Source: Patescibacteria group bacterium (GTDB lineage: Bacteria; Patescibacteriota; Microgenomatia; UBA8517). Taken from it: a stretch of 64,000 nt of DNA. Of the stretch, positions 22,743 to 51,830 are shown one piece after another. Within the stretch, counting starts at the first letter, position 1; the number at the start of each line of letters is the position of its first letter. Under the pieces are notes generated by a model. The model was not told the origin of the DNA, did not search any database, and saw only the letters and a program-made list of their open reading frames with translations. Both the position numbers and the translations under genes were made by a program. The stretch is from the NCBI GenBank assembly GCA_041742135.1, contig JBGSJG010000008.1, positions 32,518-96,517 on the forward strand, given 5' to 3'.

Positions 22743-22792
22743 TCCTAATTTTACTAAATTTTAAGCTTAGATTATACTAACTACAGATTAGC

Positions 22793-27015: not shown

Positions 27016-27044
27016 GCTGATATAATTTCTTATAAACTATTCGC

Positions 27045-29511: not shown

Positions 29512-29523
29512 GCTATACTACAA

Positions 29524-35748: not shown

Positions 35749-37369
35749 ATCAACTTATTTTTGGCTTTTGGTGCTTAGCCTGCCGGCGCTATGGTTTTTA
35801 GTTACTCCGGGGGGCTATGAGCCTCACGATTTTCACCATATTGCGGACATTCATCAAATGTATCGAGCAATAACATCGGGGCAAATTCCTCCAAGACTCG
35901 GCCCGGATTTTTATATGAGCTTTGGCTATCCACTATTTAATTACTACTATGTTTTGCCCTTTTATTTGGGCGCGGGATTTTTTGCCCTAACCGGGAGTTT
36001 GATGGAAGCCCTGAAGTGGGTTTTTCTGGCTTCAGGAATAGTTTCGGTACTGGGAATGTACGCCTTGCTTCGAAAATATTTCAGTAGTGCTGCTTCTGTG
36101 GCAGGTGCAGTCCTTTATCTGTACACACCTTTTCGCGCAGTTGAGATATATGTACGCGGTGCAATTGGCGAGGCTGTGGCAATTGCTCTTTTGCCCTGGG
36201 TTTTGTATGCATTTGTCGCTTTAGTTGGCAAAACCAATAAGAAAAATATCGCGCTTTTGGCCGTTGTTTTGGGTTTATTTTTTATTACTCACAACTACTT
36301 CTTTTTAATCGCTATGCCGTTTATCGGCCTTTTTACATTAATTGAGCTTCACGGGTCTGGCAAGTTTATTCAAAAAATACCCGCAGTACTTTCTGCTATC
36401 TTGCTAGGAATTTTGGCTTCTGCCTATTGGTGGTTACCTGCGTTTGTAGAACACCGTCTTGTGGCTTCGGCGACTCCATTCGCAATTCACGATCACTTTC
36501 CCTTTTTAAAACAGTTAATTTTGCCAAGTTGGGGATATGGCAGCTCAGTTTGGGGCCCGTATGATCTTATTTCTTTTCAAATTGGCATCGTGAATCTGAT
36601 AGCGGTTGCCGTTTCGATTCTTTTGTTTATCAAACTAAGAAACAACATGAATAGGCAATATAAAATCGCATTGCTTGCATTTGTCTTTTTTATGCTTTGC
36701 GTTTTTATGATGAACATCCGATCGATGCCTGTTTGGAAAATCATTCCCTTCACGAACTTCATTCAATTCCCATGGAGATTTTTAGGCTTCACCACCTTCT
36801 TCAGCTCGTTTTTGGCAGGGTTTGTAGTTGAGAATTTGCGTTGGCGTAAACTTGCGGCGCTTTTAGTTATAGCCTCTTGCATCATCTTGACTGTGGGGTA
36901 CTTTAGGCCGAGCGGGAATTTGCTTCGCACTAACGAGGAATATTTAAATCATTTTTTCAACAACACAATGTATAGTGAAGATTATTTGCAGACTCCAATT
37001 GGGGTTAGCGCAAAGCCCACAACTCCACTGGCAAAGTTTGAAGTCGAAGCTGGCGAGGTGTTGTCAATCGTGGAGGCCTCGCCTGTCAGTTGGCGAGCAG
37101 AGATCGTAGCAGAGTCTGGCTCGGTTGTTACAGCTAATGCTTTGGCCATTCCCGGATGGGTGGTTAAAGTTGATGGGAATCCGATCCAAACTCGATTTAA
37201 GGAACCCATGGGAAACATGGAGTTTTCTCTTTCCGCAGGCCTTCACACAGTTGAGCTTTCATGGGAGGAAACGGACTTGAGGCAGGTAGCAGACATCATG
37301 AGCCTAGCGGCACTACTAATTATTTGTTACCTATTTCTAGCGAGACCCCGTTCTCGTGCTACAATTTGA
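35735..37369 (+). CDS. GT-C-like membrane glycosyltransferase, 'YFPMHDD' family, divergent paralog 3
   Basis: YEPHDFHHIADIHQMYRAITSGQIPPRLGPDFYMSFGYPLFNYYYVLPFY and FRAVEIYVRGAIGEAVA. Same architecture as paralogs 1 and 2. Confidence 0.45.
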   Translation: MKLHKSTYFWLLVLSLPALWFLVTPGGYEPHDFHHIADIHQMYRAITSGQIPPRLGPDFYMSFGYPLFNYYYVLPFYLGAGFFALTGSLMEALKWVFLASGIVSVLGMYALLRKYFSSAASVAGAVLYLYTPFRAVEIYVRGAIGEAVAIALLPWVLYAFVALVGKTNKKNIALLAVVLGLFFITHNYFFLIAMPFIGLFTLIELHGSGKFIQKIPAVLSAILLGILASAYWWLPAFVEHRLVASATPFAIHDHFPFLKQLILPSWGYGSSVWGPYDLISFQIGIVNLIAVAVSILLFIKLRNNMNRQYKIALLAFVFFMLCVFMMNIRSMPVWKIIPFTNFIQFPWRFLGFTTFFSSFLAGFVVENLRWRKLAALLVIASCIILTVGYFRPSGNLLRTNEEYLNHFFNNTMYSEDYLQTPIGVSAKPTTPLAKFEVEAGEVLSIVEASPVSWRAEIVAESGSVVTANALAIPGWVVKVDGNPIQTRFKEPMGNMEFSLSAGLHTVELSWEETDLRQVADIMSLAALLIICYLFLARPRSRATI

Positions 37370-38835
37370 GTGTGGAAGACAAGTTTGAGCTAGGTTTGGA
37401 TGAGGTTAAAAAACGTGCCGTGCGTGGGGTGGTTGCCATAATGGGGCGCGGTTTTTTTATTCAATTTGTTGCTCAAATCTCACAATTTTTTCTCTTAGCA
37501 TTTTTAAGTGTCGAGGAAATGGGAGTGTTTTGGATTGTTTCAGCAGCTGTAGGTTTTTTCATATTCTTTTCCGATATTGGCCTCGCGGCAGCGCTTATAC
37601 AAAAGAGGGAAAAACCAACCACCGAGGACTTAAGAACCACCTTTACTGTTCAGCAAACTCTAATACTACTTCTTTTGGGAGTAATCTATGTTCTGACACC
37701 ATATTTTAAAAATATTTATAATCTCAGTGACCAGGGTGTAATTTTGCTATATGCTCTTGGGTTTTCACTTTTTTTGTCATCCTTAAAAAGCATCCCTTCT
37801 GTCCTTCTTGAGCGAAAACTGGAATTTTCAAAATTTATAATTCCCGATTTACTCGAGAGCGTGGTTTATAGTTTTGTGGTGGTTTTTTTGGCATGGAAGG
37901 GATTTGGCATTACCAGTTTTAGCTATGCCGTAATCCTAAGAGGCATCGTGGGAGTTGTTGCCATGTATTCACTACAGCCTTGGAGGCCGGGCTTGGCATT
38001 TGCCAAAAAATCTTTATTTGCGCTTTTTAAATTCGGCGTTCCTTACCAAATTAATCAACTTGTTGCGCTTCTTAAAGATCGAGGAGTAACGCTTGCTCTG
38101 GGGGCAGTTTTGGGGCCAAGTGGTGTTGGGTACTTGGGGACTGCTGAGCGCATGAGCCAAATACCACTACGACAATTTCTAGATCCAGTAACCAAAGTGA
38201 CATTTCCAGCATTTGCCAGGATGCAAAACGATAAAAACGAGCTTGCTCAAAGCGTTTCAAGGTCTTTGATGGTGATAAGTTTTTTTGTATTTCCTTGGGC
38301 GGTGGGCATGTGGCTTGTGGCACCACTTCTTTTGAAAGTCATCCCAAACTATGCCAAATGGGAGCCTTCTTTGATTCCTTTGGGCTTTATGACCATAAAC
38401 GTTTTGTTCGCTGCCGTTACTACCCAGCTTACCAACATGCTCATGGCCATTGGCCGAATTAAAACAGTTTCTCTCTTGATTGGCATGTGGGCAATTTTGA
38501 CAATAGCCTTTGTCCCGACTTTAGGTCATTTTTACGGGGTTAATGGCGCTGCGTTAGGCTACGCCATGGTTTCTTCAACTTCAGTGATCGCAATAATAAT
38601 CGCCAAAAAATATGTCGATTTTTCTTTACTTGGAGTGGCAAAGACGGCCGCGGCAACTATCGCGATGGCTTTGGTAGTATTCGTGGCTCGTGCCTTCGCT
38701 CCACCAACTCTTCCGGCCATCGGAGTGTTGATTGCGATGGGCGGACTTGTCTATGTAGCAGTCTCTTACCTCTTGTTGGGTAAAAGCCTCATAACCGATG
38801 CTAAGAAATTTATTAAAGCATTTTTCAACAAATAG
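37366..38835 (+). CDS. Wzx/MOP-superfamily oligosaccharide flippase (polysaccharide biosynthesis protein)
   Basis: About 12-14 TM helices; GRGFFIQFVAQISQFFLLAFLSVEEMGVFWIVSAAVGFFIFFSDIGLAAALIQKRE is typical of Wzx/RfbX. Start tentatively the TTG at 37366 (or GTG at 37372), just after the upstream stop at 37369; the track ORF starts at 37261 inside the upstream gene. Confidence 0.6.
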   Translation: MSVEDKFELGLDEVKKRAVRGVVAIMGRGFFIQFVAQISQFFLLAFLSVEEMGVFWIVSAAVGFFIFFSDIGLAAALIQKREKPTTEDLRTTFTVQQTLILLLLGVIYVLTPYFKNIYNLSDQGVILLYALGFSLFLSSLKSIPSVLLERKLEFSKFIIPDLLESVVYSFVVVFLAWKGFGITSFSYAVILRGIVGVVAMYSLQPWRPGLAFAKKSLFALFKFGVPYQINQLVALLKDRGVTLALGAVLGPSGVGYLGTAERMSQIPLRQFLDPVTKVTFPAFARMQNDKNELAQSVSRSLMVISFFVFPWAVGMWLVAPLLLKVIPNYAKWEPSLIPLGFMTINVLFAAVTTQLTNMLMAIGRIKTVSLLIGMWAILTIAFVPTLGHFYGVNGAALGYAMVSSTSVIAIIIAKKYVDFSLLGVAKTAAATIAMALVVFVARAFAPPTLPAIGVLIAMGGLVYVAVSYLLLGKSLITDAKKFIKAFFNK

Positions 38836-40486
38836 AGCTGTAACTCTTCTTATTCTCGCCGGAACCGTCGTTTGGTCGCTGACTATGGTTAAAAGCGGGA
38901 TTTTGTACGACTACGGACTAGGTTTCTGGGGACCAAATGGGCACGATGGAGTTTGGCATCTTTCCCTTGCTGGTTCGCTGTCGAGAGGCTCTATACAGAT
39001 GCCCGTATTTGCTGGAGAGGCGCTCCAAAATTACCATTTAGGTTTTGATTTGCTTCTGGCCGGTCTGTATAGAATCACGGGGATTCCTCTGGCGCTATGG
39101 TATTTTCAAATTATTCCAGTATTTACCGCGTTATCAATTGGGGTATTAACTTACGTTTTTGTTTTGTCTTGGAAAAAAAATAAAAGTGCAGCCTTTTGGA
39201 GTACGTTTTTGGTTTATTTTGCGGGCAACTTGGGTTGGGTTGTAAATATTTTCAAAACTGGTTCTTTGGGAGGAGAATCAATCTTCTGGGCTCAGCCTGC
39301 GGTTCTCACTCTTATTAATCCTCCTTTTGCGCTGTCATTGGTCTTTATTTTGGCCGGACTCTATTTTGTCACCAAATCTCGAGTAATTCTTGCGGCTATT
39401 TGTTTCGGGGTTTTGATTCAAATCAAAGCATATGCCGGTGTCATTGTTTTAGGAGCGCTTCTTGTAAGCGCAGTATACGAGTTTTTAAGTAGAAGAACCT
39501 TTGTCTTTTCACGAATATCTCTTGTTTCGCTTTTGATTTCGCTGATTATCTTTTTGCCATTTCTGTCTTCAAGTTCGCTTTTGGAGCTTAAACCCTTTTG
39601 GTTTTTGGAAACCATGATGGCTTTTCCTGATCGGTTTGGCTGGGCACAATTTGGTGAAGCCATGGTCAATTATCGGCTCGCTGGTAATTTTATTAAGTCA
39701 CTGGCAGCGTACTCTCTTGCCTTTGTCATCTTTTGGTATGGAAATATGGGAGTAAGGTTTTTGGGCGAGTTTTACGTAGCAAGTTTTGCAAAAAACAAAA
39801 GAAAACCTTCGGTCCTGGATGTTTTACTAATTAGTGCAATTTTAATCGGTACCCTTATGGCAATGCTTTTTGTTCAAAAGGGTACAGCTTGGAACACGAT
39901 CCAGTTTTATTACTATTCGCTATTTTTTGCCTCACTTCTGTCGGGAATAGTTTTTGCGGGGATACTTAAGAATTTCTCAAGTCGCAAGCTTGGATCACTT
40001 GTTGCCCTTGGCATGATCGTATTTTGCATACCAACTACCATTTCGGTCCTAAAGCATTACTTGCCCGCCCGCCCGCCGGCCATGATTTCAGTAAATGAAC
40101 TTGCAGCATTGAATTTTCTTAAAAATCAGCAAGATGGAGTAGTTTTGGTTATGCCATTTGACCGAAAAGCTGCCCAGGATGCGGTGAGTAAGCCGCCAAG
40201 GCCGCTTTATTTGTATGAGTCTACTGCATATGTCTCCGCTTTTTCGGGTAAGCCCGTGTGGCTTGAAGACGAGGTGAATCTGGATATTACTGGCTACGAT
40301 TGGCCGGCAAGACGTACCGAGCTTACACTTGCGCTTGAGAGTTCGTCAAGCTTTTCGGCCTTTGTTGAGTCAAATAATATTTCCTACGTTTATGTCGCCC
40401 AAGATCAGGCAGAAAAGTATAAAAACGTACTAGGTGGCCTAAATAAAATATATTCTGCGGAGTCTGAAATTTACAAAATAGACTAG
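38798..40486 (+). CDS. Multi-pass membrane protein, candidate glycan polymerase/ligase (Wzy-like) or GT-C
   Basis: About 12 TM helices, a large loop with GPNGHDGVWHLSLAGSL, and a C-terminal soluble region. Sits directly downstream of the Wzx-like gene. Confidence 0.3.
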   Translation: MLRNLLKHFSTNRAVTLLILAGTVVWSLTMVKSGILYDYGLGFWGPNGHDGVWHLSLAGSLSRGSIQMPVFAGEALQNYHLGFDLLLAGLYRITGIPLALWYFQIIPVFTALSIGVLTYVFVLSWKKNKSAAFWSTFLVYFAGNLGWVVNIFKTGSLGGESIFWAQPAVLTLINPPFALSLVFILAGLYFVTKSRVILAAICFGVLIQIKAYAGVIVLGALLVSAVYEFLSRRTFVFSRISLVSLLISLIIFLPFLSSSSLLELKPFWFLETMMAFPDRFGWAQFGEAMVNYRLAGNFIKSLAAYSLAFVIFWYGNMGVRFLGEFYVASFAKNKRKPSVLDVLLISAILIGTLMAMLFVQKGTAWNTIQFYYYSLFFASLLSGIVFAGILKNFSSRKLGSLVALGMIVFCIPTTISVLKHYLPARPPAMISVNELAALNFLKNQQDGVVLVMPFDRKAAQDAVSKPPRPLYLYESTAYVSAFSGKPVWLEDEVNLDITGYDWPARRTELTLALESSSSFSAFVESNNISYVYVAQDQAEKYKNVLGGLNKIYSAESEIYKID

Positions 40487-40507
40487 CTCTTCTGTTACAA
40501 TCAAGCT

Positions 40508-41407
40508 ATGGCAAGCATTTCTGTAGTCATAAATACCCTAAACGAGGAGCATCATTTGCCCGCCGCACTAAAGTCAGTCACTAATTGGGCACAAGAGATT
40601 GTAGTCGTTGATATGCATTCGACTGATAAAACGACTGAAATTGCTAAAAGTTTCGGAGCAAAAGTCTTTCTTCACGAACCCATGGGCTACGTTGAGCCTG
40701 CACGTAATTTTGCGATCGCAAAAGCCACCAGCGAGTGGATTTTGATTTTAGATGCCGACGAGGAGATCCCTAGTGAATTGGCTAAAAAACTTGAGAGCCT
40801 GGCGAAGGCAAGTGAGTACGACTATTTTTCAATTCCCAGAAAGAACATTGTTTTTAAGAAATGGTTAAAATATTCCCGTTGGTGGCCTGATTACAACATT
40901 CGTTTTTTTAGAAAAAATGCGGTCAGTTGGATGCCCGAAATTCATTCTATTCCCTTAACCCAGGGTAAAGGTATGGATCTTGAGGCGAAAGTGGAGTTTG
41001 CAATTGTTCATCATAACTATGACTCGATCGAGAGTTTCATTCAAAGACTAAATAGATATTCAACTGTCCAGGCTCATGAGCAAAAAAATGCAGGTCGCAA
41101 ATCTTCTTGGAGAAATTTCATTCGAAAACCTGTGTCTGAGTTTTTGGGAAGATATTTTGTTGGTAAAGGATACAAAGACGGGGCACACGGCTTGGCAGTG
41201 AGTTTGCTTCAGGCCTTCTCGGAGTTGGTGGTTGAGCTTAAGCTCTGGGAGCTTTCAAAGTTTAAGGAAAAAGAAATAAGCTTGAAAACACTTAGCGCGG
41301 AGCTCAGAAATAATCAAAAAGAGATAAATTACTGGGTCAACGAAGCACTTGTTAACGAAACTGGTGGAATTATTTCCAAAGTGAAACGGAAGTTCAAACT
41401 TCTATAA
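40508..41407 (+). CDS. GT2 family glycosyltransferase (WaaE/KdtX-like), paralog A
   Basis: ISVVINTLNEEHHL...VVVDMHSTDKTTEIAKSFGAKV...ILDADEEIP. Confidence 0.65.
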   Translation: MASISVVINTLNEEHHLPAALKSVTNWAQEIVVVDMHSTDKTTEIAKSFGAKVFLHEPMGYVEPARNFAIAKATSEWILILDADEEIPSELAKKLESLAKASEYDYFSIPRKNIVFKKWLKYSRWWPDYNIRFFRKNAVSWMPEIHSIPLTQGKGMDLEAKVEFAIVHHNYDSIESFIQRLNRYSTVQAHEQKNAGRKSSWRNFIRKPVSEFLGRYFVGKGYKDGAHGLAVSLLQAFSELVVELKLWELSKFKEKEISLKTLSAELRNNQKEINYWVNEALVNETGGIISKVKRKFKLL

Positions 41408-41411
41408 TTAA

Positions 41412-42326
41412 ATGATAAGCGTCTACGCAATAATCTTAAACTGGAATAGAAAAGTTGACACGATAGAGTGTTTAAAAAGTATAGCGAAGACTAAAAAAAG
41501 CGGGTTTAATTTGACTACTGTTGTTGTTGATAATGCATCTACTGATGGTTCAGTCGATGAAATCAAGAAATTTGTAAATAACCAAGATACAATTTTGATT
41601 GTTAATGATTCCAATTTAGGTTTCGCCGCCGGCAATAATGTTGGGATAAATTACGCACTTTTTCACTCGGCAGAGTACATTTTAGTTTTAAACAACGACA
41701 CAAGACTTGATGTGAATTTGCTGCATGAGCTTGTAGAGGCAGCTTCAAAAAGTCCTCGAGGGGGCGCATTTTCACCAAAGATTTATTTTGAAAAAGGCTA
41801 CGAATTTCACAAAAAAAGGTATTCAGAAAGTGATTTAGGAAAGGTTATTTGGGCTGCAGGTGGAATCATGGATTGGAATAACGTTTATGGAATTAACCGT
41901 GGAGTTGACGAAGTTGATGCCGGCCAGTATGACAAAAGTTTAAATATCGAGTTTGCTACAGGAGCATGTGTTTTATATAGCGCTTCGGCTCTTAAAAAAG
42001 TTGGAGTTTTTGATGAAAAATACTTCATGTATTACGAGGACGTGGATCTTTCAATTCGTTTGGCACGTGCTGGTTTTGCGATACACTTCGTACCTAAAGC
42101 AGTTTTATGGCACAAAGTAGCACAAAGTTCAGGAATCGGAAGTGGACTGAACGATTACTTTATTGCACGAAACAGGATGCTCTTTGGGCTTAAATACGCA
42201 TCAGTAAGAACAATACTTGCTTTGTTTCGAGAAAGCATTAAGCTTTTGCGCAAAGGCAGGGCTTGGCAAAGAATTGGGATCAAGGATTTTTACTTGAGCA
42301 AATTTGGCAAAGGAAGCTGGAAATGA
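41412..42326 (+). CDS. GT2 family glycosyltransferase (WbbL/rhamnosyltransferase-like)
   Basis: ISVYAIILNWNRKVDTIECLKSI...VVVDNASTDGS...LVLNNDTRLD. Confidence 0.65.
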   Translation: MISVYAIILNWNRKVDTIECLKSIAKTKKSGFNLTTVVVDNASTDGSVDEIKKFVNNQDTILIVNDSNLGFAAGNNVGINYALFHSAEYILVLNNDTRLDVNLLHELVEAASKSPRGGAFSPKIYFEKGYEFHKKRYSESDLGKVIWAAGGIMDWNNVYGINRGVDEVDAGQYDKSLNIEFATGACVLYSASALKKVGVFDEKYFMYYEDVDLSIRLARAGFAIHFVPKAVLWHKVAQSSGIGSGLNDYFIARNRMLFGLKYASVRTILALFRESIKLLRKGRAWQRIGIKDFYLSKFGKGSWK

Positions 42327-43093
42327 AAATATCTGCAGTAATTATCGCCAAGAACGAAGAGGTGATGCTCTCAGATTGTTTGGCCACGCTAAAATGGGCA
42401 GACGAAATTGTACTTATTGATAATGGCTCAACTGACAACACAGCAAAAATAGCTCGATCAGCCGGGGCGCGAGTGATCAATTTTCCTAAAGGGAAAAATT
42501 ATTCCGACCTTCGCAAAAAAGGAGCAAGCGAGGCAAAATTTGAGTGGATCTTGTATGTCGATGCTGACGAGCGCATTCCGGAAAACTTGGCTCGCGAGGT
42601 TGTGAGTATTGTTAAAAGTGAAAGTGCCTTAAATGCTTATGCGATACCAAGGCGAAATTTCGTCTTAGGTAAAGAGCTAAAACACGGTGGGTTTTGGCCG
42701 GATTATCAAAAACGTTTTTTTAGAAAAAAGGGACTTTCGGGCTGGAGTGGAAAAGTTCACGAGGAGCCAATTTTTAAAGGTGAATTGGGACTTCTAGTTA
42801 ACCCTATGCTTCACATTAAGCATGAAGATTTGTCTCAGATGGTTGAAAAAACAAATAATTGGTCGGAAATCGAAGGAAGATTGATGTTGGAAGCAAATCA
42901 TCCGCCGATGAATGTTCTACGCTTTTTAAGTGCCATGGCTCGCGAATTTTGGCTTAGGATGATTGCTAAAAAAGCTTTTTTAGATGGAAAGATTGGAGTT
43001 ATTTTTGCCCTGTATCAAGTGTTTAGCAAATTTGTTTCTTATGCCAAACTTTGGGAGATGCAACTCACACAAAATGAAAGCAGCAATAGTTAA
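42323..43093 (+). CDS. GT2 family glycosyltransferase (WaaE/KdtX-like), paralog B
   Basis: MKISAVIIAKNEEVML...VLIDNGSTDNTAKIARSAGARV...YVDADERIP. Start taken at ATG 42323 (ATGA overlap with the upstream stop). Confidence 0.65.
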   Translation: MKISAVIIAKNEEVMLSDCLATLKWADEIVLIDNGSTDNTAKIARSAGARVINFPKGKNYSDLRKKGASEAKFEWILYVDADERIPENLAREVVSIVKSESALNAYAIPRRNFVLGKELKHGGFWPDYQKRFFRKKGLSGWSGKVHEEPIFKGELGLLVNPMLHIKHEDLSQMVEKTNNWSEIEGRLMLEANHPPMNVLRFLSAMAREFWLRMIAKKAFLDGKIGVIFALYQVFSKFVSYAKLWEMQLTQNESSNS

Positions 43094-44096
43094 TCCGTAT
43101 TGGGACAGCTTGGGTGGTGGTGAGCGCTACTGTATTGGTGTGATTAAAGCCTTCGAAAATAAAGGGTACGCGGTTACGTTACAGTGGCCGGACCCCGCGA
43201 TTACTTCTCATCTTGAAAAAAGATTTGGAATTAAACTCGCAAGCGTAAAAGTAGCCAGTGATGTGAATCGGGGAGACGGGTATGATGCTTGTTTCTGGGT
43301 TTCAGATGGCAGTATCCCAACTTTAAAATCTAGAAATAACATCTTGCATTTTCAGGTTCCCTTTAGCGATGTAGGAGGCCGTACTCTGATCAATAAAATG
43401 AAGTTTATGCGAGTCAAAAATATCGTCGCAAATTCAGAGTTTACAAAAAGAGTAGTAGATCGAGAATACGGGATAAAAAGCAAAGTTGTTTATCCTCCAG
43501 TGTCTGTTTCCATGTTTCATCCTAAAAAGAAAGAAAATTGCATTTGTTATATCGGTCGTTTTTCCAAACTCGTACAACACAAAAGACAAGACATACTGAT
43601 TGAAGTGTTTAAGAAATTTTACAAGACTCACAAAAATTGGAAGTTAATTTTAGCGGGAGGGGCTGAAGTCGGGAATGATGTGACAGCATCGTTACGCGAT
43701 TTGGCTAAGGGCTATCCTATCGAAATAATAGAAAGCCCAAGCTTTAATGAAGTTCGAGACATTGTGGGAAAATCTAAAATATTTTGGTCAGCTGCTGGCT
43801 ATGGTGTTGACGAAACCCGTGATCCTTCGGGAGTCGAACATTTTGGAATAACGCTGATTGAAGCTATGGCCGCAAAAGCCGTGCCCGTAGTTGTCGGCAA
43901 AGGTGGCTTTACTGAGATAATCGAAAAAGACGTCACTGGATTTCTGTGGATCAGAAAACAAGAACTTGTTGATTATTCGGATTTAGTAGCAACAGACTAC
44001 AAACTTTACAGACAAATGTCGTCCGCAGCCAAAACACGAAGTGCAGATTTTTCAGAAAAAGTTTTTGAAGATAGTTTCGGAAGTTTAATTAATTAA
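43074..44096 (+). CDS. GT4 family glycosyltransferase
   Basis: EHFGITLIEAMAAKAVPVVVGKGGFTEII (GT4 E-x7-E region). Start taken at ATG 43074. Confidence 0.65.
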   Translation: MKAAIVNPYWDSLGGGERYCIGVIKAFENKGYAVTLQWPDPAITSHLEKRFGIKLASVKVASDVNRGDGYDACFWVSDGSIPTLKSRNNILHFQVPFSDVGGRTLINKMKFMRVKNIVANSEFTKRVVDREYGIKSKVVYPPVSVSMFHPKKKENCICYIGRFSKLVQHKRQDILIEVFKKFYKTHKNWKLILAGGAEVGNDVTASLRDLAKGYPIEIIESPSFNEVRDIVGKSKIFWSAAGYGVDETRDPSGVEHFGITLIEAMAAKAVPVVVGKGGFTEIIEKDVTGFLWIRKQELVDYSDLVATDYKLYRQMSSAAKTRSADFSEKVFEDSFGSLIN

Positions 44097-44097
44097 A

Positions 44098-45003
44098 GTG
44101 AAAAAAGTTGAAATATCAGTCGTTATCCCAAATTGGAACGGGGCATTTTTGCTTAAAAAAAATCTACCAAAAGTTATCGCGGCCAGTAAAAACAAGGTTA
44201 ACAATATCATTGAGATAATTATTGTCGACGACTTTTCAGGGGACGACTCTGTAGATTTACTTGAAAAAGAATTTGCATCAGACGTTCGTTTAATTAAACA
44301 TCAAAAAAATCAACGCTTTGCGGCCACCGTAAATACTGGCGTGCGTTTTTCTAAAGGGACGCATGTGTGTTTACTCAACACGGACGTTATCCCTACAGAG
44401 AACTTTCTGGAAAAAGTTATACCTAGCTTAAAAGACAAGCGCGTGTTTGGCGTTACGTTGCATGAAATTGGGTTTGGGCCAGCGGGTGGCTCGTTTGACG
44501 GTTATCTTGCCCACTACGGAAAGCCCGCAAGTACTTCAATTGAAAATACGCTTTGGATCAGTGGTGGCTCTGGAGTCTTTTCAAAAGAAAAGTGGCAAGA
44601 GCTTCATGGGTTGGATAGTGAGCTTTTTTCGCCGTTTTATTGGGAAGATGTTGACTTGGGGTACCGAGCTCATAAGCGTGGCTACCAGTTACTTTGGGAG
44701 CCTGGTGCTTTGGTTACACATAAACATGAATCCGTCACTAACCCAAAAAATTTTAAAAAAAGCTATTTATCTTTAATGAAGGAAAGAAACGAACTCTTAT
44801 TTATTTGGAAAAACATTACCAGTAAGAATCTTTTTGCAAAACATAAAAAGGCAGTTGTGGAAAGGATGATTAAGCATCCGGGCTACGCTAAAGTGGTGAT
44901 AGCAGCACTTCGTCGGTGGAATTTAGTCATGTCTCGTCGCGGACGCGAAAAAGCTGAATCTGTTGTTTCTGACGAAATGATCTTTGAAAAATTCTCCGTA
45001 TGA
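44098..45003 (+). CDS. GT2 family glycosyltransferase
   Basis: ISVVIPNWNGAFLL...IIVDDFSGDDS...LLNTDVIP. Confidence 0.65.
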   Translation: MKKVEISVVIPNWNGAFLLKKNLPKVIAASKNKVNNIIEIIIVDDFSGDDSVDLLEKEFASDVRLIKHQKNQRFAATVNTGVRFSKGTHVCLLNTDVIPTENFLEKVIPSLKDKRVFGVTLHEIGFGPAGGSFDGYLAHYGKPASTSIENTLWISGGSGVFSKEKWQELHGLDSELFSPFYWEDVDLGYRAHKRGYQLLWEPGALVTHKHESVTNPKNFKKSYLSLMKERNELLFIWKNITSKNLFAKHKKAVVERMIKHPGYAKVVIAALRRWNLVMSRRGREKAESVVSDEMIFEKFSV

Positions 45004-47204
45004 AATTATCTGTAATCATCGTCAATTACAACACGAAAGAAATTACGTTGGATTGTCTGCGTTCACTTGAGAAAAATCCATTTCGATCGCAATTTGAGGT
45101 AATTTTAGTCGACAATGCTTCGAGCGATGGATCAGAGGCGTCTCTTTCTAAATTCAGATCATCCAAGTTTTCCTACACTTTTGTGAGAAACGATCGCAAT
45201 CTTGGCTTTGCCAAAGCGAATAACATAGGGCTGAAAAAAGCGAAAGGCGAATACTGTTTGCTTCTTAATTCAGACACTTTGGTTTTGGAAGATTCACTAA
45301 ACGATCTTTACGATTTCGCAATAAAGCATCCGGATGCTGGGGTAATAGCTCCGAAGCTGTTAAATGGCGATAAAACGGTCCAAGCTTCTGTTTACAAGTT
45401 GCCAACAATCGCGAGGACTATTAAAGAATACTGGCTTGGCCAAAAAGGCTTAAATGACAAATATGTTCCACCCCAAAGCTCGCCAGTCTCGGTGGAGGCT
45501 GTGGTGGCGGCTGCGTTTTTAATTACACCTAAAGCGAAGAAAAAGGTTGGCTTGTTAGACGAGAAATATTTTATGTATTTTGAAGATCTTGATTATTGCA
45601 GAAGCGTTACCAAACAAGGCTTAAAAGTTTACTACTTGCCGAAAACAAAAATAGTCCATCTTCATGGCAAAAGCGGAGAAAACGCTGCTGCTCACGCCGA
45701 CCAGTGGAAAAGGCTTATTCCGTCAAGTAAGATTTACCACGGATTAATAACCCACTATATTCGTTGGTTTATTATGCGAACTAGCCAAGCTAGGCGTGAG
45801 CCGATTATTTTGGCAATAGTCCTTTTGGCACTTTTCTTCAGGCTTTATTACCTAAACGATAATTTGTTTTTTGGTTTTGAACAAGGAAGGGATTTTTTGA
45901 AATTTACAGAGATAGCTTCGGGAGATCCTACCTTGATTGGCCCAAAAACCGATATTGATGGAATATTTCATGGAGCTCTTTCGTATTATTTACCTTTACC
46001 TGCGTTCGTCCTTTTTTTAGGGAGCCCTTATCTGGTGCTAGCTTCGTTAATAGTGATTCACGCAATCTCCGTGTACTTTTTGCACAAGTTTGCTTTAAGT
46101 ATTGGGGACAAAAAATTTGCCACCTTTACAGCTTTAATTTATGCATGTTCGTATCCTTCAATTGTGTACGCGCGCTGGCTATCTAATCCAAACTTAGCCC
46201 CTGCCTTTGCGATTTTTGTATTTTATTTTTTGAGTCGTGCGAAACAGAACAAAATTAACCTTGTAATTGCAGCGATGTTTTGGGCCTTCATTTTTCATAT
46301 TCAAGTTATCGCAGCAATGATACTGATACTTCCGGTTTTGTTCTTCGTAATTTCAAAGAGAGTTTTGCAACTTAAGTACGCCATACTTTCTGCTCTTACG
46401 GTACTTGTCGTCTTGTCTACTTATGTTGCCTTTAATTTTATCAACGACAATATTTTGTATAACGGACTCATTAATTATTTTGCTGAGCTTGGAGGTCCGC
46501 GCATTTTCTCTCTTTCTGAGTTCTACAATCAAATTACTGATGAATTCATGCCTTCTTGGCGCTCAGGGGCTTTTATCTTATTGTCATTGTCAGTTTTTGC
46601 GGCACTGATTGATTGGCGAAGTTACAGATCTCGGCTGGTTCTTCTTCTGTATTTTTCGGCGCCGATTGTTTTTATGATTTTAGGAGTTACCCCACTCAGG
46701 CACTTGTTTATTCTATCGCCAGTTTTCGCATCGCTTTTGTTGGCCAATCTTGTAAGTTCTTCTATGCCGCGACTGCTCAAGACTGCTGGGCTTCTTTTGA
46801 TAATACTTGTCATCGTCGCTAGTATTGTTACGATTTTAGAGCGTTTACCAGAGAGTCAGCGAAATTATATTTATCCTGCACAGGCCACGTATCTTTCCGA
46901 CATGACTGAACTTATAGATTATGCCTATCAGGATTCAAACGGCACAGCTTTCAGTTATGATTATTATTCAATTCCCTATTGGCACAATGATTCTTGGCGA
47001 TATCTCTTTGGGTGGTATGGATTGAGAAAATACGGATCACTCCCGGCGGAAAATCGAACAGCTATTTTTTATGTCTTTATTGAGCCAGATGAAATTCAGC
47101 CTAAGTACCAGGAAGATTGGTACAAAAAAATGAATAGTGAAAGCCGCGTGCTAGAGTCTCGTAAATCAGGTAAACTAATACTAGAAAAGAGGCAAGTGTT
47201 GTGA
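45000..47204 (+). CDS. Fusion: GT2 glycosyltransferase (N-terminal) + PMT/ArnT-like GT-C membrane domain ('GDEGRD'-type, C-terminal)
   Basis: N-terminal LSVIIVNYNTKEI...ILVDNASSDGS...LLLNSDTLV (nt ~45000-45750). C-terminal FRLYYLNDNLFFGFEQGRDFLKFTEIASGDPTLIGPKTDIDGIFHGALSYY plus about 12 TM helices (nt ~45780-47204). Confidence 0.65.
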   Translation: MKLSVIIVNYNTKEITLDCLRSLEKNPFRSQFEVILVDNASSDGSEASLSKFRSSKFSYTFVRNDRNLGFAKANNIGLKKAKGEYCLLLNSDTLVLEDSLNDLYDFAIKHPDAGVIAPKLLNGDKTVQASVYKLPTIARTIKEYWLGQKGLNDKYVPPQSSPVSVEAVVAAAFLITPKAKKKVGLLDEKYFMYFEDLDYCRSVTKQGLKVYYLPKTKIVHLHGKSGENAAAHADQWKRLIPSSKIYHGLITHYIRWFIMRTSQARREPIILAIVLLALFFRLYYLNDNLFFGFEQGRDFLKFTEIASGDPTLIGPKTDIDGIFHGALSYYLPLPAFVLFLGSPYLVLASLIVIHAISVYFLHKFALSIGDKKFATFTALIYACSYPSIVYARWLSNPNLAPAFAIFVFYFLSRAKQNKINLVIAAMFWAFIFHIQVIAAMILILPVLFFVISKRVLQLKYAILSALTVLVVLSTYVAFNFINDNILYNGLINYFAELGGPRIFSLSEFYNQITDEFMPSWRSGAFILLSLSVFAALIDWRSYRSRLVLLLYFSAPIVFMILGVTPLRHLFILSPVFASLLLANLVSSSMPRLLKTAGLLLIILVIVASIVTILERLPESQRNYIYPAQATYLSDMTELIDYAYQDSNGTAFSYDYYSIPYWHNDSWRYLFGWYGLRKYGSLPAENRTAIFYVFIEPDEIQPKYQEDWYKKMNSESRVLESRKSGKLILEKRQVL

Positions 47205-48874
47205 AAAAGTACAGTCTACTGATTATTATTCTTCTTTTGACGTCGTTTCTCCGGTTATATAAGCTAGACCACGTCCCTGTGAGTCTGTTTGGGGACGAAA
47301 TGGATTTGGGCTATCAAGCTTATTCTATTTTAAAAACTGGTAATGATTATTACGGAAACTTCATGCCATTTCACTTTCATTCCTTGGCAGAGTGGAGAAC
47401 GCCTCTTTATTTGTATTCAGCAGTCCCAACTGTCGCTTTGTTTGGCATTTCACCTCTGGGAGTCAGACTCCCTGCAGCAATTTTTGGAATTTTGGGCGTA
47501 GTCGCCTTTTACTTCTTGGTTAAAATTATTCGCGAATCGTTCATGAAATCGGGAAGCACCCGCATTGAGGCAGTCGGAGCTTTTCTCCTGGCCATTTCAC
47601 CTTGGCATATCCAATACAGCCGTGCAGGTTTTGAAGTAACAGAAATGCTTTTTTTCCTGATAACAGGTATTTATTTCTTCCTTCGCGGGCTCAAGGATGG
47701 AAAATACTTATGGCTTTCGGCAGTCTGCCTTACTTTGACTCCTTGGATTTATAGCACTGCAAAAATGTTCGTTCCTTTTTTAATAATTTTTCTTGTAGTA
47801 ACTTTTCGAAAGGAGCTTGTGAAGACCTCAAAAAAGCACCTTCTGTCCGCAATCGTTGCTCTTCTTGTTGTTGGTTTGCCGATTGCAGCAAGTACACTGT
47901 TTGGCGGTGGCAGCCAACGTTTTGGTTACATATCGGTATTTACAGATCCTACAATAGAACACGAGATCGGAGTAGCGCGAGATATCGACGCCTGGGGAAA
48001 CTCAATTGCTTCCCGCGCATTTCACAATAAATTTGTTGTCTGGGCAGAGGCGATAGGCAACAATATGCTCCAGAGTTATTCTACTGATTATCTTTTTATT
48101 AGAGGTGATATTAATCTTCGCCACTCCATTGAAGATATGGGAATGCTCTATAAAGTCGAGATAGTCGCGCTTTTGTTGGGCATTGTTTATTTCTTTAGAG
48201 CCAAAGCAGACAGAAGAATTAAGTACCTTCTAGCCTTTTGGTTATTGGCAGGCGTGGTGCCATCAGCAATAACTCGTGAAGGAGGAAGCCATGGGACTAG
48301 GCTAATTTTAATCTTGCCACCTCTTATACTGCTTGTGGCTTCTGGTGTAAGCTGGCTTTCGAAAAACAAGATCTACCTTTTTCTTTACACTTTTGTTTTG
48401 TGCGGACTGTTTGTAATTTATCAGCATAACTTCTGGGTTCATAATCCAAAGTATTCAGAGCGTTGGTGGCATTATGGATGGCAAGAAGCGGTGGATAGCA
48501 TCAAAGCTGTAGAAGGAAGCTATGACAAAGTTGTGATCTCTACGGCGGATGAGCCACCTTGGGTGTTTTTTGCTGGGGCTTATGAATACGACCCCAAATC
48601 TTGGCAGGAAAATTTTCCATTAGATAACAAAGCCGATCTTGAGGGCTTCGGTTCGGTTTCTTATATCGATAAGTACTATTTCGGAAGTCCCAAGGCCGGT
48701 CTTTACGATTGGGGGAAAATTATCGATTCAAAAACGCTTTATTTGGCATCAACCCGAGAGGTGGGAGTGAATTTGATTCGCGAGCCCGAGCGAACCCCCG
48801 GGGATTTGAAATTAATTGATTCCATCGCTTTCCCGTCAGGCGAGCCTGCATTTTACTTGTTTACCCACAGATGA
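47201..48874 (+). CDS. PMT/ArnT-family GT-C glycosyltransferase (COG1807-like), tandem paralog 1
   Basis: LRLYKLDHVPVSLFGDEMDLGYQAYSILKTGNDYYGNFMPFHF...LFGISPLGVRLPAAIFGILGVVAFYFL. About 11 TM helices and a ~200-aa soluble C-terminal domain. Confidence 0.65.
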   Translation: MKKYSLLIIILLLTSFLRLYKLDHVPVSLFGDEMDLGYQAYSILKTGNDYYGNFMPFHFHSLAEWRTPLYLYSAVPTVALFGISPLGVRLPAAIFGILGVVAFYFLVKIIRESFMKSGSTRIEAVGAFLLAISPWHIQYSRAGFEVTEMLFFLITGIYFFLRGLKDGKYLWLSAVCLTLTPWIYSTAKMFVPFLIIFLVVTFRKELVKTSKKHLLSAIVALLVVGLPIAASTLFGGGSQRFGYISVFTDPTIEHEIGVARDIDAWGNSIASRAFHNKFVVWAEAIGNNMLQSYSTDYLFIRGDINLRHSIEDMGMLYKVEIVALLLGIVYFFRAKADRRIKYLLAFWLLAGVVPSAITREGGSHGTRLILILPPLILLVASGVSWLSKNKIYLFLYTFVLCGLFVIYQHNFWVHNPKYSERWWHYGWQEAVDSIKAVEGSYDKVVISTADEPPWVFFAGAYEYDPKSWQENFPLDNKADLEGFGSVSYIDKYYFGSPKAGLYDWGKIIDSKTLYLASTREVGVNLIREPERTPGDLKLIDSIAFPSGEPAFYLFTHR

Positions 48875-50148
48875 ACCGCAAACTGGTTTTGGTTTTTTTG
48901 ACAGCGCTACTGTTGCGTCTTGTTTTGTCCCCTCTTTTTTGGCATCCAGATGTCACAAACCATCTCGATTGGGGGATAAGATTTTTTGAGTACGGTATCG
49001 ATAAAATATACGCTCCCGAGTCAAACGTCTGGTCGTTTACTTGGCCAAATCAGCCTCCCGGAACAATGCTTATTTTTGCCTTTATTCGAAAGTTCTACGA
49101 GTTGGTATTTGGTTTTTTGTGGAACATAAACGTTTCAATTCCAAGTTTCCCCTCTGTGATTATCACACTTGCCCAGAGCTATTTGTATCAAGTATTCGTT
49201 AAGCTGCCGGCAATTCTTTCCGATCTCGGGATCGCCTACTTAATATATTTGTTTGTAGAGAAATTTAATAAAAAATCAGCAATTTGGGCAGCTGCAGCAT
49301 TTCTGTTTAATCCGGTAATTTGGTACAACTCCTCAGTCTGGGGACAAACGGATGCGGTTGTAAATTTCTTGTTTTTGTTGGGCTTTTGGTTACTGCTCAA
49401 AAAACGCCTTTTTTACTCAATGATTTTTGTTTGCTTGTGTTTATTTGTCAAAATTTCACTCGCAATATTTTTGCCAATATTTATCATCTTTCTCATTCGG
49501 CAAAAATTCTCTTGGAGTAAAATACTTTTTTCAGGCCTACTATCTTTTGTAATTATCATGCTAATCACGTTGCCGTTTTCGGGGGGCAACAATCCTACCC
49601 CGTGGCTTTATGAGATTTATAAAACCAAAGTCATGACCAATCAACTGCAAGTCATTACTGCCAATGCGTTTAACATTTGGATTAGCTTGACCGGAATTGC
49701 CGAAAAGCCACATACCCTATTTTTAGGACCGCTTACCTATCAATCTTGGGGAGTTTTGCTTTTTGGAGCCTCGATAATTCCCGTCTTCGTCATGCTCTGG
49801 AAAAAGCCCACTGAACTAGCTGCGATTTGGGGCTTCTTTATTATCGCTTTTTCTTCGTGGTTGCTTCTTACTAACATGCACGAGCGATATCTATATCCAG
49901 CTTTCCCATTTTTGACAATTTTGGCTTTCAAATACAAAAAGATGCTTCCGGTTCTATTCGGACTTTCGGCGCTAAACTTGTTAAACCTATACAATCTCTG
50001 GTGGACGCCGCTCATCCCTTTCGTCAAAAATATAATGTCCTATTCTGACTTTTTGCTGGCTCGCGTCTTTGGTATCGTTAATACGGTTTTTTACATGATC
50101 AGCTATAAGCAGTATTTGATAGATAGTCGCGATATAATTAAAAAATGA
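48871..50148 (+). CDS. Multi-pass membrane protein, GT-C-like (DUF2029/GT87-like?)
   Basis: About 11 TM helices. LFWHPDVTNHLDWGIRFFEYG loop. Inserted between PMT-like paralogs. Confidence 0.3.
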   Translation: MNRKLVLVFLTALLLRLVLSPLFWHPDVTNHLDWGIRFFEYGIDKIYAPESNVWSFTWPNQPPGTMLIFAFIRKFYELVFGFLWNINVSIPSFPSVIITLAQSYLYQVFVKLPAILSDLGIAYLIYLFVEKFNKKSAIWAAAAFLFNPVIWYNSSVWGQTDAVVNFLFLLGFWLLLKKRLFYSMIFVCLCLFVKISLAIFLPIFIIFLIRQKFSWSKILFSGLLSFVIIMLITLPFSGGNNPTPWLYEIYKTKVMTNQLQVITANAFNIWISLTGIAEKPHTLFLGPLTYQSWGVLLFGASIIPVFVMLWKKPTELAAIWGFFIIAFSSWLLLTNMHERYLYPAFPFLTILAFKYKKMLPVLFGLSALNLLNLYNLWWTPLIPFVKNIMSYSDFLLARVFGIVNTVFYMISYKQYLIDSRDIIKK

Positions 50149-51830
50149 GGTACAAATACATTTTTTTGGGGCTTATAGTTGGACTTGCTTTTGTACTGCG
50201 TTTTGTAGGTATTTCAAGCTATCCAGCTGGTTTTTCAGCTGACGAGGTAAACCAAGGCTACACCGCATATTCGATACTTAAAACCGGGCGAGACGAGTGG
50301 GGAGAGCTTTTTCCCGTTGCTCCGCGAGCCTACGGTGACTATCGAGCCCCGCTTTACACATATTTAACTGTGCCTTCAGTATTCTTGTTTGGACTAAACG
50401 AATTTGCGGTACGGTTCCCAAACGTCCTTGTTGGCACTATTGCTATCTTGGTTTTGTACCTTCTTTCTAAGGAATTATTTAAAAACTTCAAGAACTCTGA
50501 AGCAATTTCATTGTTAGCGGCCAGTATTCTTGCAATTAGTCCATGGCACGTGGGCATGTCGCGTGGCAGCTTTGAAACAAACTTGCCGTCACTACTGATT
50601 CCCTTGGCTTCACTTTTTTTCCTAAAAGGACTTGATAAGAAAAAGTACATGTTGGCTTCAATGATTTGTTTTGGGTTCAGTTTGTTCTCTTACTACTCAG
50701 CTCGGCTCCTTTTGCCATTCGTTTTATTGGCGTTTTATTTGCTCTTTGTGAGGCCAAAGTTTGGTGTTTTGCAGGCTGTTAAAAAATTCAAGCTTTCATT
50801 AATAGTTTTTGCCATCTTTGCTTTTCTAGCATCGTATACGATGTTCTTCGGAGCTCAAACAAGAATTGCTGACGTCGCGCTTTTTAATTCAGAGGCTATA
50901 TTCCGAACTGCGGCAGACCAAAAATACCAAGCAGTACTTTTGGGCTTGCCAGACACAATAGCCCGTCTGTTTTCGAACAAGGTTTTTGCGGTTGGTGAAC
51001 AAATAATTAAAAATTATTTAGGATATTTTTCGATTGAATTTTTGTTTACCCAAGGCGCTGGAGAAGCGACTTACGGACTCATGCCCGGCCGAGGACTGCT
51101 TCATCTAATTGAACTGCCATTTTTGTTGTTTTCGATTTATTCGATTTTACAAAACAAACTATATCGTGATCGAAGAATCTTGTTTATTTTAGTTGTTATT
51201 GCCATGGCACCGATCCCCGCATCTTTAACTGCGAGCGTTGGGTTTGCTGCAAATCGCTCAGCGCTTATGATTCCTTGGATTCACATTCTCGCGGCCTATG
51301 GTGCAATCGCACTCGCAAGCAAAATTAAAATCAAGAAAATTTGGATCGCCTTCGCAACATTTTATGTTTTTGCAACGGTTTTATTCTTGGAAGACTATTT
51401 TTTCCATGCCCCTATGCAAAATTCCCGTCAAATGAGCTATGGCTGGAAGCAGATGGCTTCGTATTTGGATGAAGTTTCAGATTCCTATCCCCAGGTAATT
51501 ATAAGCAGAAACTTGTCTGAGCCTCAGATGTTTTTAGCGTTCTATCTTAAAATTGACCCGCGCGTTGTTCAGAAAGAATCGCAGGACTGGTTAAGGTATC
51601 AAGCTAACGGGCTAAAATTTGTTGATCAATTGGGAGAATACAAAATCGCAAACTTCACAATCAGAAATCTAGATAGGAATTCAGATTTAAGATTGGATAG
51701 CGCACTGCTGGTTGGTAAGCCCGAGGATTTTCCTCACGATATCGTCCCAAGTTACTCTGTTAATTACCCGGATGGCCAACAAGCAATTATCGCGGTTTCA
51801 ACACGTGCGGAATATGCAAAAGGGAATTAA
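50145..51830 (+). CDS. PMT/ArnT-family GT-C glycosyltransferase, tandem paralog 2
   Basis: FSADEVNQGYTAYSILKTGRDEWGELFPVAPRAYGDYRAPLYTYL...LFGLNEFAVRFPNVLVGTIAILVLYLLSKE. Confidence 0.65.
   Translation: MRYKYIFLGLIVGLAFVLRFVGISSYPAGFSADEVNQGYTAYSILKTGRDEWGELFPVAPRAYGDYRAPLYTYLTVPSVFLFGLNEFAVRFPNVLVGTIAILVLYLLSKELFKNFKNSEAISLLAASILAISPWHVGMSRGSFETNLPSLLIPLASLFFLKGLDKKKYMLASMICFGFSLFSYYSARLLLPFVLLAFYLLFVRPKFGVLQAVKKFKLSLIVFAIFAFLASYTMFFGAQTRIADVALFNSEAIFRTAADQKYQAVLLGLPDTIARLFSNKVFAVGEQIIKNYLGYFSIEFLFTQGAGEATYGLMPGRGLLHLIELPFLLFSIYSILQNKLYRDRRILFILVVIAMAPIPASLTASVGFAANRSALMIPWIHILAAYGAIALASKIKIKKIWIAFATFYVFATVLFLEDYFFHAPMQNSRQMSYGWKQMASYLDEVSDSYPQVIISRNLSEPQMFLAFYLKIDPRVVQKESQDWLRYQANGLKFVDQLGEYKIANFTIRNLDRNSDLRLDSALLVGKPEDFPHDIVPSYSVNYPDGQQAIIAVSTRAEYAKGN

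Follow-up and report, generated by a model that had tools for sequence, protein, structure and literature searches.

A natural fusion of a family 2 glycosyltransferase to a GT-C glycosyltransferase in a Wzx-containing operon of a Microgenomates-group bacterium

Extracytoplasmic glycosylation normally uses separate enzymes at the inner and the outer face of the membrane, and the coordination between them is poorly understood. In the three-component systems of transmembrane (TM) glycosylation, the labor is divided between a glycosyltransferase (GT) of the GT-A type (GtrB, CsbB or GtlA), a flippase (GtrA/GtcA or Wzx) and a glycosyltransferase of the GT-C type (GtrC, YfhO or GtlB) (PMC8035078). 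In the synthesis of the lactococcal polysaccharide pellicle (PSP), in which WpsC, WpsG, WpsH and WpsJ take part, cytoplasmic family 2 glycosyltransferases (GT2) elongate a sugar linked to undecaprenyl phosphate (C55-P) prior to Wzx flipping and GT-C transfer (PMC10821137). Here we analyze a 64-kb stretch of DNA (contig JBGSJG010000008.1, positions 32,518 to 96,517; hereinafter the window, with positions counted from its first letter) from a Microgenomates-group genome (Patescibacteria, or candidate phyla radiation (CPR)), in which both kinds of transferase are encoded by one gene, 45000-47204 on the + strand. The product of this gene is a genuine, single-polypeptide GT-A(GT2)::GT-C glycosyltransferase. 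The explanation of the locus that we favor, giving it as a whole slightly better than even chances, is that a real fusion encoded in a Wzx operon would extend a lipid-linked glycan inside the cell through its GT2 domain and act outside through its GT-C domain, and that the particular pairing of the two modules arose by deletion.

The fusion gene is an uninterrupted open reading frame (ORF) that encodes 734 aa plus stop, and the region contains no N bases. Its ATG overlaps by 4 nt the stop of the upstream GT2 gene (44098-45003) and its stop overlaps, also by 4 nt, the GTG start of the downstream PMT_2 gene (47201-48874), and by these overlaps it is translationally coupled to both neighbors. The translation contains the motifs VIIVNYNTKE, VDNASSDGS, NSDTLV, FEDLDY, FRLYYLNDNLFFGFEQGRDFLKF, GDPTLIGPKTDIDG and YYLPLP. 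Up to Q263, it is homologous in frame to the C-terminal tails of the orthologous GT2 proteins; from P268 on, with no change of frame, it shares homology with the N-termini of GT-C proteins encoded by genes of their own, which consist of M-K-K, the first TM helix (TM1) and NLFFG[FY]EQGRD. Only 12 nt, that is, four codons (ARRE, aa 264-267) located just before TM1, separate the two segments; this junction contains no homopolymer, no stop and no usable downstream start, and the other two frames are full of stops. The GT2 domain with the linker is 69% identical to the respective part of P0004, a 761-aa GT2::GT-C fusion from an independent assembly in which the flanking genes are 78-81% identical to their window counterparts. 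The linker segment RWFIMRTSQ is identical in the two fusions, and the window linker belongs with the 'fused' type of P0004 rather than with the 'free tail' type of L001, a locus where the genes are split.

Given the in-frame homology on both sides of the junction and the match of the linker to an independently assembled fusion, a frameshift or missed-stop artefact appears very unlikely on sequence grounds. The initial annotation, which had described a one-gene fusion of a GT2 to a GT-C, named a sequencing error at nt ~45750-45790 as the event that could have produced it; a single frame runs through this region, with no stop, no N and a linker identical to that of P0004, and this origin was rejected by the frame and linker analysis, so that the one-gene fusion is confirmed by the frame, the P0004-type linker, the Pfam match of the GT2 domain and the GT-C fold. 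More generally, a merger of two genes by assembly or sequencing could be suspected, given that the source is a metagenome-assembled contig, that the protein is present in one record only and that split orthologues overlap by 4 nt, such that a single indel could in principle join them. Nevertheless, the shared frame, the clean junction and the 'fused' type of the linker argue against such an event, and the two GT-C lineages found at this position in related operons (GTCa and GTCb, the latter being the window type; see below) are only ~24% identical, which makes assembly collapse between them implausible; we regard such a merger as extremely improbable.

The C-terminal 469 aa taken alone gave no Pfam or NCBIfam match at permissive thresholds, with no PMT_2 (PF13231) match even at E 10, and a profile of the C-domain family compared with PDB sequences gave no match to any solved GT-C; because of the latter result, the GT-C identity was taken from paralogues, from Pfam matches of family members and from a fold search. 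The domain is homologous over its full length to the in-window proteins 27985-29511 (E 4e-25) and 23479-25023, both of which match PMT_2 and have the first-loop motifs FYFDQGRD and FLGDEGRD, and PMT_2 is matched by 42 of the 49 members of the family alignment A1, including these two paralogues (best E 5e-17). The full-length AlphaFold2 (AF2) model, built from a 93-sequence alignment, has a mean predicted local distance difference test score (pLDDT) of 95.4 and a predicted template modeling score (pTM) of 0.88. Given that Foldseek with this model listed only GT-A matches among the top 50, the C-domain was modeled separately (pLDDT 93.2, pTM 0.93). At E <= 1e-3, the latter model has 20 matches, each of them either a GT-C enzyme or part of a complex assembled around one; the fold matches include ALG12 (TM-score 0.64), STT3/OST, Pmt4, AglB, DPY19 and, as the best bacterial structural match, ArnT (0.62), with AftB at E 2.7e-3. 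Judging by the paralogues, the family members and a confident model that matches ALG12, STT3 and ArnT, the C-domain is a predicted GT-C.

The model and the hydropathy profile agree on 11 TM helices in this domain, so that the GT-C assignment of the initial annotation stands whereas its count of ~12 helices does not. The K/R-rich loops (369-372, 414-418, 453-454, 538-545 and 590-594) are all on the GT2 side, whereas the acidic loops, namely the first external loop (EL1) and 482-520, are on the opposite side. This pattern agrees with the topology anticipated in the initial annotation, in which the GT2 domain is predicted to be cytoplasmic and the first GT-C loop outside, as is, in the model, the C-terminal domain; the positive-inside distribution, the N-terminus inside and the acidic residue in the first loop are all features of GT-C enzymes. 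Position 294 (E294 in the window protein) is always D or E, the next residue, Q295, is invariant, and D298 is invariant within the 49 sequences of A1; E294, Q295 and D298 accordingly are the putative catalytic site. A donor linked to polyprenyl phosphate would be expected of a GT-C enzyme of the PMT_2/ArnT-like kind.

GT-C genes are exceptionally dense in the window, with ~19 PMT_2-, PTPS_related-, GT87-like or paralogous polytopic proteins encoded in the stretches 7590-9008, 21588-25023, 27985-37369 and 47201-58991. Among them are six PMT_2 paralogues (28-35% identical to one another) that form a tandem run, 47201-48874 and 50145-58991, broken by a single gene, the GT87-like 48871-50148; another three, at 32468-37369, are PTPS_related-like paralogues. 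Within the tandem array, the ORF 51712-52449 (+; 245 aa, TTG start, very hydrophobic, no family match) overlaps the end of 50145-51830 by 119 nt and is placed like the 'small GT2' genes that precede GT-C genes; the call could be wrong, or the product could be a small membrane protein with a partner role.

In the N-terminal domain, residues 4-227 match the Pfam GT2 models PF00535 (3e-25; 89.4 bits, cut-off 23.3) and PF13641 (3e-11; 44.2 bits, cut-off 27), and the GT-A fold is evident from pLDDT of ~90-98 over residues 1-230 and from Foldseek matches to GT-A enzymes at 5e-10 to 1e-8. Across seven fusions, the invariant residues are N39, the DXD-type N90-S-D92 (N90-x-D92 in LNSDT), E195 and D198 of the C-terminal acidic E195-D-L-D198 (FEDLD) and H220. 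As far as the alignments indicate, catalytic-type residues are conserved in both the GT2 and the GT-C domains.

With respect to the class of the GT2 domain, full-domain NCBIfam matches covering both halves were obtained with the rhamnosyltransferase model TIGR01556, MftF, HpsE/N and GlfT1, and the TIGR01556 alignment spans residues 10-225 at 56.3 bits, which does not reach the cut-off of 200.55. The ArnC model aligns only with residues 2-93, the N-terminal, nucleotide-binding half (E 2e-3). A search of PDB sequences identified TarS and TarP as neighbors and DPMS only at 3e-4, with no match to GtrB or ArnC, and the Foldseek neighbors in the PDB, among the matches listed, are ppGalNAc-T2, the fucosyltransferase WrtF, TarS and RmlT; the GT-A enzymes matched in this way act on peptide, polymer or oligosaccharide acceptors. 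The standalone orthologue L001:5168-6004 shows the same NCBIfam pattern, and the closest in-window paralogue, the free GT2 41412-42326 of the same operon, is 34% identical. Full-domain similarity to the DPM1/GtrB/ArnC/PpgS class was not detected in the fused GT2, whereas small GT2s of the window, used as a positive control, do show it: those at 22793, 29524 and 31759, which overlap GT-C genes, match the ArnC, PgfS, PpgS, Dol-P-hexose transferase and AglJ models, and the one at 31759 has, in its catalytic domain, additional matches to the structures of GtrB, ArnC and DPMS (for the small GT2 6670-7593, no class could be assigned). The initial annotation had held that the same two activities occur elsewhere in the window as separate, overlapping genes; such pairs exist (6670/7590, 22793/23479, 29524/30191 and 31759/32468), but the three small GT2s that were compared belong to the ArnC/PgfS/PpgS/GtrB/DPMS-like class. 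The fused GT2 thus resembles RfbF/WbbL/MftF-type enzymes with sugar or peptide acceptors and is probably not a lipid-phosphate-sugar synthase of the ArnC/GtrB/DPM1 type, and this is a resemblance, not an equivalence, because all the NCBIfam scores are far below the curated cut-offs.

Genes of dTDP-rhamnose synthesis were sought beside the fusion as support for a rhamnosyltransferase, and none was found nearby; the sole 6-deoxysugar candidates, a truncated 4,6-dehydratase and an RmlD-like reductase, are 43 kb away, which is weak evidence. A processive synthase, with a GT2 and a channel as in HAS or BcsA, was also considered and rejected given that the Foldseek alignments with HAS have a root mean square deviation of ~20 Å and that the membrane domain is clearly of the GT-C type.

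A search for orthologous split and fused forms, which the initial annotation had proposed as a Rosetta-stone argument, was successful. In five loci of Candidatus Woesebacteria (L001-L004 and L006), a separate GT2 (278 aa, 60% identical) overlaps a separate GT-C (470 aa, 58% identical) by 4 nt. In L005, L086 and L087, the GT2 is fused to another PMT_2-type GT-C (GTCa, ~24% identical to the window GT-C), and a free-standing GTCb is encoded downstream of it. A third arrangement, seen in L088, L089 and ~60 further proteins 810-835 aa long, joins this GT2 (51-58% identical) to a PTPS_related/YfhO-like module of ~550 aa that is homologous to the core of the window GT-C (hhalign probability 96%). Altogether, at least four different GT-C lineages accompany this GT2 orthologue, either as separate genes or in one polypeptide with it; 66 of the retrieved proteins longer than 650 aa carry it on a different GT-C module, and in every locus with a full flank the orthologue occupies the same position in an operon of constant gene order (37261-50148 in the window): Wzx, a membrane protein without family assignment (~570 aa), three GT2s, a GT4, a GT2, GT2::GT-C and then further GT-Cs. 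From the side of the GT-C, among the best 80 loci of GTDB species representatives with a relative of this domain, none has a fusion, and the orthologous GT2 is found upstream only in the three closest. Given the split and fused orthologues in syntenic positions, the two modules are functionally linked. This much of the coupling put forward in the initial annotation is supported; the donor-synthase role that it gave to the GT2 is not, in view of the lack of full-domain similarity to ArnC, GtrB or DPMS.

The domain architecture as such is abundant. When a profile built from seven fusions was compared with 1.84 billion representatives at 50% identity, it retrieved 147 new proteins; 76 of these have lengths of 680-780 aa, and most of the 76 match the profile over one long stretch. 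These are GT2::PMT_2 fusions with a conserved S-R-F-Y-Y-x-K-K-x-x-G linker and the first-loop motif FIGDQGWF, so that at least 76 clusters at 50% identity have the GT2::GT-C architecture. In the databases, such proteins are annotated at most as 'GT2 family glycosyltransferase' or 'WbbL' (the ~830-aa relative QLG69557.1 is named WbbL in one source), and a full-text literature search found no paper that describes natural GT2::GT-C fusions. The impression of the initial annotation that the architecture has not been described hence holds for the literature but not for the databases. Two loci with fusions of the 680-780-aa type (L090 and L091) encode Wzx, a GT4, a small GT2 plus PMT_2 pair and a Wzy_C protein; L090 contains two GT2::PMT_2 fusions, 2211-4805 (864 aa) and 8001-10154 (717 aa), together with Wzx, a methyltransferase and a GT4. 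The window gene belongs to this large, uncharacterized protein family, as its unique module-swapped member.

Two other multidomain ORFs are encoded in the window. The 1547-aa ORF 2025-6668 (+) combines two GT2 domains, a Wzx/Polysacc_synt flippase domain (aa 733-1009) and a GT4 (GT-B) and is a far more extreme fusion of cytoplasmic transferases with a membrane component of the same pathway, whereas 9885-11774 (+; 629 aa) is a polysaccharide deacetylase domain (aa 82-204) fused to a GT4. Among the database relatives, TPA_asm records of metagenome-assembled genomes labeled 'uncultured Gammaproteobacteria bacterium' (L009, L010, L013 and many others) encode a GT-C family that is otherwise found only in Patescibacteria; these labels are probably placeholders or errors.

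The exact GT2::GTCb pairing is found on a single contig among ~15 billion proteins, and elsewhere the GTCb lineage is only free-standing. At the window junction, a P0004-type linker is joined to a GTCb-type TM1, and no GTCa orthologue is present in the window. The simplest history compatible with these sequences appears to be that an ancestor with the arrangement [GT2::GTCa][GTCb] lost GTCa through an in-frame deletion. It could then be argued that the fusion is an incidental by-product of the deletion, in which the two domains work separately or have little to do with each other, or one of the two lacks activity, the GT-C being a membrane anchor at best. The singular occurrence of the pairing, the separate GTCb gene in the closest relatives and the interchangeability of the partner module are compatible with this possibility. 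However, the catalytic-type residues are intact in both domains, the AF2 model is confident across both (pTM 0.88), the split genes overlap by 4 nt, and of 87 relatives that possess this GT2 orthologue and were retrieved through their similarity to the fusion, 71 have it joined to a GT-C of some kind; we therefore consider an incidental fusion unlikely.

Given the affinities of the GT2 domain, its 41412-42326 paralogue and the context of five GTs and Wzx, taken together, the fused GT2 most likely extends lipid-linked glycans by one residue on the cytoplasmic side of the membrane. In the conserved operon, which is of the Wzx type for glycan assembly, the fusion gene comes last among the genes for cytoplasmic transferases. 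Under this scenario, the five upstream GTs would assemble an acceptor glycan at the inner face, the RfbF/WbbL-like GT2 domain would transfer one residue from a nucleotide sugar onto this polyprenyl-phosphate- or diphosphate-linked glycan, and Wzx would flip the lipid-linked product. The fused GT-C would act at the outer face in the same pathway, either (i) transferring the glycan off the lipid carrier or (ii) decorating it with the sugar of a polyprenyl-P-sugar that the separate ArnC-like GT2s would supply. Fusion would mainly provide membrane anchoring, co-localization and 1:1 stoichiometry. In the model, two linker helices and TM1 of the GT-C are predicted to tether the GT2 domain to the membrane; the second helix, which is aromatic, basic and amphipathic, probably lies at the membrane interface.

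The alternative closest to the initial annotation is that the fused GT2 is a polyprenyl-phosphate sugar synthase of the GtrB/CsbB/ArnC/DPM1 kind, the flipped product of which feeds its own GT-C, in effect a two-in-one three-component system. The topology is compatible with such a role, the linker motif SSKIYHG is strongly conserved, the fusion or adjacency of one GT2 orthologue to at least four GT-C lineages suggests a generic relation between a synthase and its consumers, and the model places two helices between the GT-A domain and TM1. Comparable interface helices are reportedly present in the published structure of DPMS. Yet full-domain similarity to ArnC, GtrB, DPMS and PpgS is lacking; no fewer than three typical members of that class are encoded in the window beside other GT-Cs, and in L090 and L091 a small GT2 plus PMT_2 pair lies right beside the fusion. 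Furthermore, the invariant acidic FE(D/E)xD motif is retained, and a catalytic base would be expected for hydroxyl acceptors; the gene also lies among five other soluble GTs and Wzx, the layout of a repeat-unit pathway. On balance, a donor synthase seems doubtful. Several observations also weigh against the inner-face elongation that we favor: every NCBIfam score of the fused GT2 is far below the curated cut-off, the exact pairing is known from one contig, and the recurrent joining of a single GT2 to numerous unrelated GT-C modules would also be expected of a donor synthase and its consumer. In addition, no initiating phosphoglycosyl transferase was detected among the window ORFs scanned against Pfam (a few ORFs by NCBIfam only; 51712-52449 and 62674-63528 not Pfam-scanned). 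The same scan gave no match to a Wzy family; the related clusters L090 and L091 do carry Wzy_C.

A more radical possibility is a self-contained 'inside-out' machine, in which an RfbF-like GT2 loads a polyprenyl phosphate or lipid-linked glycan held by its own GT-C, which then translocates the product and transfers it outside. Such a machine would explain the repeated fusion of one GT2 to interchangeable GT-C modules; if it exists, a separate flippase would be unnecessary for this step and the fusion would represent a new mechanistic class of transmembrane glycosyltransferase. We consider this decidedly improbable.

The features of the fusion and of the operon are listed in Table 1. The flippase and several cytoplasmic GTs are co-directional, as in Wzx clusters, and their order is conserved in L086-L089. 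A protein of about the same size as 38798-40486 (~530-580 aa), likewise not matched by Pfam or NCBIfam models, is encoded after Wzx in L088 and L089 and ahead of the series of GT2 genes in L086 and L087; this polytopic protein is a candidate for a polymerase or another missing component. The downstream 557-aa PMT_2 protein is 81% identical to its L005 counterpart.

Table 1. Features of the fusion gene and the surrounding operon, in window coordinates
Feature	Coordinates	Strand	Basis or remark
Whole fusion gene, 734 aa plus stop	45000..47204	+	ORF, 4-nt overlaps with both neighbors
GT2 / GT-A catalytic domain, aa 1-231	45000..45692	+	Pfam, NCBIfam, alignment, AF2, Foldseek
Linker, two helices (aa 232-247, 249-264), conserved SSKIYHG motif	45693..45791	+	Alignment, AF2
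TM1 of GT-C, aa 268-282, inside to outside (predicted)	45801..45845	+	Model, hydropathy/charge
First extracytoplasmic loop (predicted), aa 283-342 (60 residues), FGFEQGRD	45846..46025	+	Alignment, model
Other ten TM helices, aa 343-618; short K/R-rich loops on predicted cytoplasmic side	46026..46853	+	Model, hydropathy/charge
C-terminal alpha/beta domain, aa 619-734, predicted extracytoplasmic	46854..47201	+	AF2 models
Wzx/MOP-family flippase, first operon gene	37261..38835	+	Polysacc_synt_3 1e-51; MOP flippase PRK10459 5e-32; same place in L088, L089
Conserved 562-aa membrane protein, no family match	38798..40486	+	Pfam/NCBIfam scans; locus comparison
Five cytoplasmic GT genes, conserved order	40508..45003	+	Pfam, paralogue comparison
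GT2	40508-41407	+	Operon GT 1
GT2, closest in-window paralogue of fused GT2	41412-42326	+	Operon GT 2
GT2	42263-43093	+	Operon GT 3
GT4	42984-44096	+	Operon GT 4
GT2	44098-45003	+	Operon GT 5
Downstream GT-C genes: PMT_2 557 aa and GT87-like 425 aa	47201..50148	+	Syntenic in all related loci

Outside the operon, three further loci of the window are worth recording. At the left end of the glycosylation region, the genes at 17-1938 (+) suggest 6-deoxyhexose synthesis: they encode an NDP-sugar 4,6-dehydratase, of which the window edge leaves only the C-terminal part, along with a NUDIX hydrolase and the RmlD-like reductase. Three tandem genes for NrnA-like DHH/DHHA1 phosphoesterases (25054-28052, +) lie between glycosylation genes. 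A sortase gene (17312-18007, +) is located near the glycosylation clusters and is consistent with a monoderm-type envelope with wall-anchored proteins.

A natural family that combines GT-A and GT-C in one polypeptide, with a constant GT2, interchangeable GT-C modules and split forms in sister genomes, offers a tractable handle for structural and biochemical study of how the inner and outer steps are coupled. It also provides access to the almost unknown cell-surface chemistry of CPR/Patescibacteria, the genomes of which are rich in GT-C paralogues. The general gains of the present analysis are the corrected class of the GT2 domain and the definition of a conserved operon; the window gene itself is one more member of the family.

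Compared with the three-component systems, the locus shares a cytoplasmic GT-A, a polyprenyl-phosphate carrier, a flippase and an extracytoplasmic GT-C within one pathway encoded by adjacent genes, and separate pairs of the three-component type are also present in the window (e.g., 22793/23479 and 31759/32468). What sets the locus apart is that its GT-A and GT-C form one polypeptide, with a GT2 of another subclass, whereas the three-component systems have separate polypeptides and a GT-A of the GtrB/DPM1/ArnC class. ArnC and ArnT, the undecaprenyl-P-4-amino-4-deoxy-L-arabinose (Ara4N) synthase and transferase (ArnT structures 5F15/5EZM), are comparable in that ArnT matches the fold of the C-domain and that the family of this domain matches PMT_2, but the C-domain has no sequence-level match, its EL1 motif G-[FY]-E-Q-G-R-D is distinct and the fused GT2 is not ArnC-like. 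The best matches of the N-domain in both GT-A halves, namely RfbF/WbbL (TIGR01556), GlfT1, MftF and HpsE/N, along with TarS, TarP, RmlT, WrtF and ppGalNAc-T2, differ in that all the window scores are far below the equivalog cut-offs, and, to our knowledge, none of these characterized enzymes is fused to a GT-C. Ppm1 (Rv2051c) of Mycobacterium tuberculosis is reportedly a fusion of a polyprenol-P-mannose synthase to a polytopic membrane domain, with split genes in related species; its membrane domain is said to be Lnt-like and N-terminal, and its GT2 to be a DPM1-type synthase, unlike in the window fusion. The database families, that is, GT2::PTPS_related/YfhO-like proteins of ~810-835 aa (BCX14740.1, MEK7550243.1) and GT2::PMT_2 proteins of ~700-780 aa (P0117, P0120, P0135-P0281), share with the window protein the domain order, the linker S-[KR]-x-x-[YF]...H-G and the same or a similar Wzx-containing cluster; the window protein differs in its GT-C of the otherwise free-standing GTCb lineage. 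The lactococcal PSP gene set (WpsA/B, WpsC-F, WpsG = Wzx, WpsH/WpsJ = GT-C), in which the GT-C enzymes polymerize or transfer the exported glycan, resembles the window operon 37261-50148, although no natural GT2::GT-C fusion is reported there and no primer of the WpsA/B type was identified in the window core operon (PMC10821137). Taken together, the system in the window is best described as a variant, hitherto undescribed in the literature, of multi-component, Wzx-dependent transmembrane glycosylation systems.

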